A DNA stretch of 37,725 nt from a virus (Duplodnaviria > Heunggongvirae > Uroviricota > Caudoviricetes). Below are positions 13,827 through 13,964 of the stretch, one piece after another. The DNA lies in IMG/VR virus record IMGVR_UViG_2721755725_000007. The stretch is one strand, 5' to 3'. The position numbers and the translations under genes are program-made. Within the stretch, counting starts at the first letter, position 1; each line of letters opens with the position of its first letter. The notes beneath the pieces are model-generated. The model was not told the DNA's origin and ran no database searches. It saw only the letters and a list, made by a program, of their open reading frames with translations.

Positions 13827-13964
13827 GTGTTTGATTTTAGCAAACTGATTCGGGAGATTCGAGTGATGGCTGAAAAATTATCCACCTGGAAGTTCATTCT
13901 TATCTGGCTGGTGTTTGTGATTATGGCCTCCGGTTATTTCATCGGTCAGATACGCTGGTGGTGA
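13827..13964 (+). CDS. candidate small membrane protein (45 aa) between endolysin and Rz
   Basis: GTG 13827 five nt after AAGGAG (13816-13821); product VFDFSKLIREIRVMAEKLSTWKFILIWLVFVIMASGYFIGQIRWW; stop TGA overlaps the Rz ATG region (TGAAATG). Not in the ORF track (<60 aa). Confidence 0.35.
   Translation: MFDFSKLIREIRVMAEKLSTWKFILIWLVFVIMASGYFIGQIRWW

Follow-up and report, generated by a model that had tools for sequence, protein, structure and literature searches.

The DNA stretch analysed here (the window) comprises 37,725 nucleotides (nt) of a Caudoviricetes virus (IMG/VR record IMGVR_UViG_2721755725_000007) and carries, between its endolysin and Rz genes, a short open reading frame (ORF) that starts with GTG at 13827–13829 and stays open on the + strand through to TGA at 13962–13964. 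The original prediction, made from the letters alone, had reported a GTG-started gene for 45 amino acids (aa) with a hydrophobic helix, preceded 5 nt upstream by AAGGAG; reading of the sequence and hydropathy analysis agreed with it in each of these respects. It had also let the stop codon overlap the Rz start region (TGAAATG). The two signals are indeed adjacent (TGA-A-ATG, with the Rz ATG at 13966), and there is no actual overlap. We found that the frame forms the 3′ part of a cassette at 13749–13964, whose observed and predicted elements are the following:

13749–13799, both strands: bidirectional intrinsic terminator forming the 5′ edge, with a stem-loop at 13758–13790 bordered by an A-rich tract (left) and a T-tract (right)
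13794–13822, + strand: hairpin sequestering the Shine–Dalgarno (SD) sequence, in which UUUCCUGACU pairs with AGUC..AGGAGA
13816–13821, + strand: SD sequence AAGGAG, read from the sequence, with a 5-nt spacer to GTG 13827
13827–13964, + strand: gene for a 45-aa tail-anchored membrane peptide, based on phrog_6632, hydropathy and selection
13896–13952, + strand: transmembrane (TM) segment, residues 24–42 (best 19-residue window, mean Kyte–Doolittle value 2.13)
13852–13868, + strand: candidate second in-frame start, GGGAG 9 nt 5′ of the Met14 ATG (13866), which would yield a 32-aa isoform
13834–13842, − strand: predicted extended −10 element TGCTAAAAT (TGnTAnnnT) within codons 3–6, based on conservation in distant members
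13857–13862, − strand: weak −35-like hexamer TCGAAT, 17 bp from the −10 element, in codons 10–12, which lack synonymous variation in the close set
13749–13828, − strand: predicted cis-antisense small RNA (sRNA) of ~80 nt, placed from the promoter and terminator positions

The coding status of the frame was examined by comparison. The product, (f)MFDFSKLIREIRVMAEKLSTWKFILIWLVFVIMASGYFIGQIRWW (45 aa), matched phrog_6632, a family of unknown function, over positions 1–45 of 45 (E=1.4e-29), and tblastn revealed frames 50–67% identical in Salmonella and Pseudomonas phages. Together with pattern scans these searches gave 188 loci with an intact frame, representing 51 distinct coding sequences and 35 protein variants. 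The family was found in at least ten genera (Escherichia, Salmonella, Citrobacter, Yersinia, Trabulsiella, Sodalis, Brenneria, Pantoea, Providencia and Pseudomonas). In codons 13–45 the proportion of synonymous differences (pS) was 0.53–0.91 and that of nonsynonymous differences (pN) 0.06–0.49, with dN/dS ~0.06–0.25 with synonymous sites near saturation. The window and Rac-SA53 differed in this part with pS 0.58, pN 0.06 and dN/dS 0.06, and more distant pairs with pS 0.6–0.9 and pN 0.15–0.5, indicating that codons 13–45 are under strong purifying selection. The frame conservation that had been suggested as a check on the ORF was thus found, with synonymous change exceeding nonsynonymous change across the homologues. 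Because the phrog_6632 match, the homologues in at least ten genera and the low dN/dS at saturated synonymous sites all point the same way, the comparative data indicated that the 45-codon frame is a real, conserved small membrane-protein gene.

This gene had been described as unannotated and easily missed, which proved correct: the region is 100% identical to a prophage of E. coli O111:H- 11128, in which RefSeq/PGAP places no coding sequence between 'lysozyme' and 'lysis protein'. Databases already contain the family, labelled 'hypothetical' (PHROG 6632), and at least 1000 contigs carry the identical 45-aa protein under the name 'hypothetical/phage protein'. When 1.84 billion representative proteins were searched with a hidden Markov model profile, only 41 clusters were obtained, every one of 32–86 aa and made up of small uncharacterised proteins. 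No match was obtained for the peptide in Pfam (E≤0.1), NCBIfam (E≤1), PADLOC or PDB sequence profiles. By these profiles the family is a small set of small proteins without a tie to any characterised domain. Several records carry versions of 57–86 aa (L002 2144–2362 and proteins P0001, P0004, P0011 and P0036), whose extra N-terminal codons cross the terminator hairpin and find no support in the 45-position profile. Since the phrog_6632 match begins exactly at GTG 13827, these longer versions are disfavoured and are probably mis-called starts.

The peptide has an amphipathic N-terminal segment of 22 residues with a net charge of +2, followed by a single TM helix and a C-terminus of RWW. Alignments demonstrated that the TM feature is kept across the family. 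The helix also contains a small-xxx-small motif, G36-x-x-x-G40, with G or S at position 36 and G, S or A at position 40 in the alignments.

We then turned to the region in front of the gene. At the 5′ edge, a terminator scan detected a stem of 15 pairs with a run of T behind it. This terminator is kept in 64/65 of the distinct cassette sequences, and each of the eight distant members has it too. Its stem covaries, with the fourth pair being AU, GC or CG and double changes occurring at 7 of the 12 pairs. The A-rich tract at its left would be the U-tract of a minus-strand RNA, and the core stem, flanked as it is by the two tracts, would be able to terminate minus-strand transcription as well. 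The mean fold was −20.6 kcal/mol on the + strand compared to −17.5 kcal/mol on the − strand (Wilcoxon p=1e-7), the + strand being more stable because G-U wobbles fall on it. At four loci (L196, L197, L199 and L092) a second terminator-like hairpin (..GCGGTTTTTTT) was seen ~20–25 nt upstream of the cassette terminator, giving a tandem arrangement.

Next to the terminator, the SD region is paired with the distal T-tract of the latter (UUUCC) and with an arm of variable sequence, so that five of the six SD bases are paired in the minimum free energy structure; the anti-SD duplex energy of AAGGAG itself is −8.7 kcal/mol. The hairpin was judged sequence by sequence, as MAFFT/RNAalifold could not align this variable element, and was present in every lineage with varying arms (TGACT/AGTCA, CCTTG/CAAGG, CCTG/CAGG, CATG/CATG, CGTTA/TAACG and GGCAG/CTGCC). 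The start codon was non-ATG in all 51 close variants, with GTG in 42 and TTG in 9. Neither inspection by eye nor a promoter scan detected a sense promoter, whether in the stretch from the terminator to the ORF or across the hairpin, and none lies in the conserved unit. In addition, nothing 5′ of the terminator was conserved between contexts, and no conserved terminator was found downstream. Because the unit has no sense promoter and a terminator stands upstream, sense transcription in the window should depend on Q-modified read-through.

The 5′ end of the coding sequence showed a different kind of constraint. Synonymous-site entropy was 0.36 bit in codons 2–12 compared to 1.15 bit in codons 13–45 (Mann–Whitney p=3.6e-4), and pS was 0–0.2 in the former part against 0.5–0.9 downstream. 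No synonymous variation at all was found at codons 3–5 (GAT, TTT/ATT, AGC) and 10–12 (GAG, TTG/ATT, CGA), with codons 7–9 free, a constrained–free–constrained pattern that matches a −10 element, a 17-bp spacer and a −35 element. On the minus strand the constrained codons read TCGnAn-17 bp-TAAAAT/TAATAT, with TGn before the −10. The window copy of the extended −10 is TGCTAAAAT at 13842..13834; in the whole 37.7 kb TGNTAWWAT is matched only twice, this copy included. RNAalifold over codons 3–12 gave no conserved mRNA structure that would explain the constraint, and an alternative mRNA pairing of these codons that is specific to the window was rejected because it is not conserved. A further minus-strand promoter-like site from the scan, 13949..13920, was likewise discarded as not conserved in homologues.

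Eight distant members were then compared together with their DNA. TGnTAnnnT was found in register in 14 of 15 protein lineages despite amino-acid changes at codons 3–6, which in the close set include DFSK and DISK. The residues at codons 3–6 and the corresponding minus-strand motifs were as follows:

EFIK: TGATAAACT
DFIK: TGATAAAAT
DYIK: TGATATAAT, a perfect consensus
YFSK: TGCTAAAAT
HISR: TGCTAATGT
HLSR: TGCTAAGAT
HFSK: TGCTAAAAT

The sole lineage out of register was the SYIK member, which has TAAGAT 2 nt away. Codon 5 was always AGC (Ser) or ATC (Ile), so the Ser/Ile swap touches only the free 'n' of TGnT, and its third base was C in 59 of 59 sequences. The joint probability of the motif under random synonymous choice was ~1e-16 for the 14/15 lineages; this treats the lineages as independent, an approximation that is justified because synonymous sites elsewhere are saturated. 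The conserved motif suggests a promoter on the minus strand, whose RNA is predicted to start at ~13826–13828, to cross the start codon, the SD sequence and the hairpin, and to end at the cassette terminator. Such an RNA would begin with an anti-SD segment, followed by a small stem-loop, a linker rich in A and the terminator with its U-tail, and has a predicted fold of −17 kcal/mol (z=−2.0).

We searched for known RNAs and reports that might correspond to it. Rfam gave nothing on the cassette, either at E≤1 on window 12000–15000 or at the gathering threshold on six homologous loci. The predicted RNA corresponds to none of the prophage sRNAs described: AgvB, AsxR and the EcOnc RNAs map downstream of PR′, and the positions of PasA, PasC and PasD are upstream of the holin. 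PasB of enteropathogenic E. coli is antisense-oriented at the tail I/J junction and unrelated in sequence. Its locus (L192, NC_011601.1, 1262–1344, minus) is beside a terminator-like hairpin, an analogous layout of an sRNA in a late operon. In the literature we found no paper on the cassette or on a codon-embedded antisense promoter, and a full-text search for the peptide motif was empty; both the cassette architecture and the promoter within codons appear to be undescribed.

The context of the cassette in the window, with a small terminase subunit gene further downstream, is as follows:

6647–7468, + strand: Q-like late antiterminator (phrog_127 and phrog_25523, 'anti-termination protein Q-like', E ~1e-113)
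~12323–12538: P21-type dual-start holin (PF04971)
13134–13667, + strand: GH24 lysozyme (endolysin) with an N-terminal hydrophobic segment resembling signal-anchor-release segments (PF00959 Phage_lysozyme, phrog_7)
13668–13748, + strand: backbone spacer 3′ of the endolysin stop, outside the cassette and common to Sakai Sp15 and Salmonella SPN3UB
13966–14433, + strand: Rz i-spanin (PF03245)
14186–14371, + strand: Rz1, embedded in Rz (PF06085)

When loci from different contexts were compared, homology started exactly at the A-rich tract 5′ of the GC hairpin and ended at the stop codon, a unit of ~215 bp. The endolysin/Rz junction was the site of 150 of 187 sampled loci. There the cassette follows three unrelated endolysin families, namely GH24, phrog_181 (GH19-like) and phrog_873 (transglycosylase-type), and usually precedes one of two Rz families. 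Further copies were found between baseplate genes V and W in Rac-SA53, SEN34, Yersinia and Pantoea. Others follow the genes for minor tail protein L, tail assembly protein I, a tail fibre or the gpT chaperone, or are neighbours of T7 gp14-like genes. Across contexts, the stop codon was separated from the next gene by 1 nt to >250 nt, and many loci have no Rz nearby. Empty sites were provided by the E. coli E2348/69 prophages PP2, PP4 and PP5 (L203, L205 and L204), in which lysozyme and Rz overlap with no DNA between them. Furthermore, the GC content of the cassette is 43.3%, compared to 55.1% for the endolysin and 55.8% for Rz. These comparisons indicated that the cassette is a mobile, moron-like unit that is not specific to the lysis cassette. 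It is found in Shiga-toxin (Stx) phages and in Salmonella, Yersinia, Pantoea and Pseudomonas phages, and 870 of 5,426 complete E. coli genomes cover at least 80% of the 500-bp stretch from the endolysin end through the cassette to the Rz start.

We propose, with moderate confidence, that the cassette is a moron at the endolysin/Rz junction of a P21-type lysis cassette and constitutes a type I toxin–antitoxin-like module, in which an antisense-guarded membrane peptide would be made late from Q-antiterminated transcription. In the lysogen, the terminator at the 5′ edge would stop ordinary read-through from upstream, and leaked mRNA would be silenced by the SD hairpin, the weak start codon (GTG/TTG) and the antisense RNA. 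Complementary to the start codon and the SD sequence, this RNA would set a threshold that only the late mRNA flood exceeds. Upon induction, Q-antiterminated transcription would pass the terminator, interfere with the convergent antisense promoter and out-titrate the RNA. The peptide would then insert into the inner membrane late in infection with its N-terminus inside and its C-terminus outside, and its small-xxx-small helix might oligomerise or engage a membrane partner, perturbing the membrane. The likeliest action would be an oligomerising membrane damage or depolarisation that promotes or speeds lysis; in P21 pinholin-type lysis systems, depolarisation is expected to promote lysis. There is a precedent in the prophage type I module hokW-sokW, which advances lysis and doubles the release of Sp5 (PMC8621323). 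From the conserved elements we infer antisense transcription, repression and late expression, and also toxicity or lysis promotion. A general role that is late, membrane-active and perhaps lysis-promoting is conceivable. The suggestion that the product might be a toxin-like peptide fits the buried SD sequence, the non-ATG start, the 5′ terminator and the predicted antisense RNA, with toxicity itself being the inferred part.

Several observations weigh against this proposal. A sense promoter, which classical type I toxins possess, is missing from the cassette, and the peptide is without similarity to any known toxin family in Pfam, NCBIfam or PADLOC. One variant (L165) has no terminator, and the G-U wobbles that favour the + strand mean that the primary role of the terminator may be in the sense direction. 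The start codon is ATG in 6 of the 8 distant members. As to the antisense promoter, the −35 element is weak (3 of 6 matches) and not conserved in distant members, a simple promoter scan did not call the −10 site, and the GAG at codon 10 can be explained by the internal SD sequence instead. Finally, Sakai Sp15 and three E2348/69 prophages, which belong to strains with public Hfq-CLIP/RIL-seq data, have no cassette at their endolysin/Rz junction.

When compared with known systems, the cassette seems to work most like hok/sok- or zor/orz-type modules. In common with type I toxin–antitoxin systems such as hok/sok, zorO/orzO and the hokW-sokW of Sp5, it encodes a hydrophobic single-TM peptide of <60 aa and is carried by mobile elements (PMC8621323; PMC2887945). 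Those modules also bury the SD sequence in mRNA structure, as the cassette hairpin does, and cover the translation-initiation region with a short antisense RNA that has its own promoter and intrinsic terminator, which in the cassette is predicted. Beyond the missing sense promoter, the cassette differs in having the terminator 5′ of the ORF, in residing inside late operons and in the 22-residue charged segment that precedes the TM helix of its peptide. Similarity to Hok/Gef, Ldr/Fst, TisB, Ibs, ShoB, Zor or DinQ was not detected with Pfam (E≤0.1) or NCBIfam (E≤1).

Parallels were also found among phage antisense systems. In P22 sieB/esc with sas, an antisense RNA has its start within a phage ORF and overlaps the ribosome-binding site that lies upstream (PMC12197685, PMC7067206), as is predicted here. 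If the dual start of the cassette gene were real, both systems would have two in-frame starts, and the RNA could switch the long to the short isoform. SieB (~190 aa) differs in being expressed from the prophage and much larger; there is no homology, and the Met14 start of the cassette is a candidate start. P22 sar/ant and lambda OOP/cII share with the predicted RNA the design of a cis-antisense RNA (68–77 nt) with a sigma-70 promoter and an intrinsic terminator that represses a phage gene post-transcriptionally (PMC12197685). They are, however, fixed in immunity or decision circuits rather than portable, and their targets are not small membrane peptides.

With phage morons (for example lambda bor/lom and HK97 gp15) the cassette shares the form of an extra gene between otherwise adjacent genes, a deviant base composition, flanking transcription signals and residence in lysis and tail modules. 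The moron of Juhala et al. 2000 reportedly has its sense promoter 5′ and its terminator 3′ of the gene and is expressed in the lysogen. In the cassette, by contrast, the terminator is upstream and the sole promoter-like element points antisense, so that in sequence terms it is a moron by position and composition and not by a promoter–gene–terminator layout. It resembles holin/antiholin pairs in being a small membrane protein beside the endolysin with possible dual in-frame starts and possible membrane permeabilisation. The peptide nevertheless has one TM helix and 45 aa and is not confined to lysis cassettes, a P21-type holin is already present in the window, and no match to holin Pfam/PHROG families was found.

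A competing account, which we regard as unlikely, is that the gene encodes a non-toxic accessory moron protein, for superinfection exclusion or host modulation through an inner-membrane partner, with the minus-strand RNA acting as a regulator or as a trans-acting prophage sRNA. The positions in tail and lysis modules and the low GC are typical of such genes, and the small-xxx-small motif would suit helix–helix contact with a partner. Moreover, an antisense RNA of a late prophage operon can itself mediate exclusion, as STnc6030 does (PMC7067206), and the A-rich linker and U-tail of the predicted sRNA resemble those of Hfq-binding sRNAs. Expression in the lysogen is nevertheless hard to explain with no sense promoter and with a terminator, tandem at some loci, directly upstream; there is no PADLOC match, and layered repression is more typical of harmful products.

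It is also doubtful, in our view, that there is no antisense RNA at all and that the cassette is simply a terminator-insulated small gene, the constraint on codons 2–12 reflecting initiation signals, that is, an AU-rich start and an internal SD sequence for Met14. What speaks for such a gene is the GGGAG 9 nt 5′ of a near-invariant methionine, which is stronger than most synonymous alternatives, and also the better folding of the terminator on the + strand and the weak −35. All but one of the 51 distinct coding sequences encode Met14, as do 18/18 of the distant proteins listed, and SD-like sequences (GGGAG, GAGG or AAGGAG) precede it by 8–9 nt across the family. The mean duplex energy of the internal SD was −7.2 kcal/mol, compared to −8.1 kcal/mol for the first SD and −4.2 kcal/mol for synonymous randomisations. 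Among the eight distant members, three have only a weak internal SD. AU-richness, however, fails to explain the invariant third-base C of codon 5 or the use of AGC alone among six Ser codons. In addition, the Ser/Ile and Asp/Glu/His/Tyr replacements all keep TGnTAnnnT, and the internal SD does not reach codons 3–5.

The same internal start led us to a secondary hypothesis, that Met14 could give a 32-aa form from outside the antisense cover. By analogy with holin/antiholin pairs, or with P22 SieB/Esc under sas, one might imagine a one-gene, two-product switch, which we consider quite improbable: the antisense RNA would block only the GTG start (45 aa), leaving the Met14 ATG with its own SD free to make the 32-aa form without the amphipathic N-terminus, and the two isoforms would be effector and antidote. 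If this were true, phages would hold a portable, RNA-timed membrane trigger that is insertable in any late operon.

Less credible still is a dedicated lysis regulator, that is, an antiholin or a modulator of the spanins or endolysin that is translationally coupled to Rz, although the prevalence of the endolysin/Rz junction with its three endolysin and two Rz families would agree with it. In the window and in SPN3UB the peptide stop lies 1 nt from the Rz ATG; the closeness of the two signals in the window had suggested coupling into the spanin genes. The gap to Rz is, however, 142–269 nt at other lysis-context loci, so that the distance to the downstream gene spans 1–269 nt, and the junction is empty in related prophages; the coupling is not upheld. 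The sample behind the junction count, moreover, is mostly E. coli prophages. An antiholin or spanin-regulator role, also put forward at first, was not indicated either: copies lie between baseplate V/W and in tail modules, at a distance from any lysis genes, the peptide matched neither holin nor antiholin families, and the P21-type dual-start holin already occupies 12323–12538. The varied contexts, the empty sites and the low GC speak against a gene that is dedicated to spanin or antiholin function and coupled to Rz in translation. That the ORF arose by chance, or that the region is conserved solely as non-coding RNA, for which one could cite the shortness of the ORF, the absence of a PGAP call in E. 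coli O111:H- 11128 and the lack of a Pfam family, is effectively refuted by amino acids conserved amid saturated synonymous change across genera, by the intact frame at 188 loci and by the end-to-end PHROG match.

If the antisense RNA and the membrane activity of the preferred antisense-guarded module are true, the cassette would represent a new and widespread family of antisense-guarded small membrane proteins. Its design, with no toxin promoter, a terminator in front and reliance on antiterminated late transcription, would be one not described for type I modules. It could also influence when lysis occurs and the release of phage, and thereby that of Shiga toxin in Stx phages. Furthermore, the gene would exemplify how a coding sequence of only 45 codons can also encode a promoter, which would be of use in annotating the small proteins and cis-antisense RNAs overlooked by pipelines.

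Some further observations concern the neighbourhood of the cassette. The spacer at 13668–13748 (~80 nt) is kept in Stx phages, Sakai Sp15 and SPN3UB whatever insert comes next, and Sakai Sp15 and SPN3UB carry other or diverged inserts 3′ of it; Rfam gave only a sub-threshold match to BTnc005 in this spacer (E=0.07). At its endolysin/Rz junction Sakai Sp15 (L193, NC_002695.2, 5749–6464, minus; ~window 13750) has the antirepressor gene ant and an unrelated 48-aa single-TM peptide, ECs_5741, which ends 8 nt before Rz and has no NCBIfam or PADLOC match. Because ECs_5741 sits there, a small membrane peptide just 5′ of Rz recurs with non-homologous genes. In the window, the ORFs at 12539–12757 and 12732–13097 overlap and match phrog_1085 consecutively at positions 117–182 and 184–296, so the gene between holin and endolysin (12539–13097) looks split or frameshifted; in E. 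coli O111 11128 the gene at this place is interrupted by IS1203. At the Rfam gathering level, sRNA-Xcc1 was matched beside ant of Rac-SA53 (L007 3560–3643, minus), near the homologous cassette, and STnc100 copies were matched, together with tRNAs, upstream of the lysis genes of a Citrobacter braakii prophage (L090 439–557 and 1119–1329).

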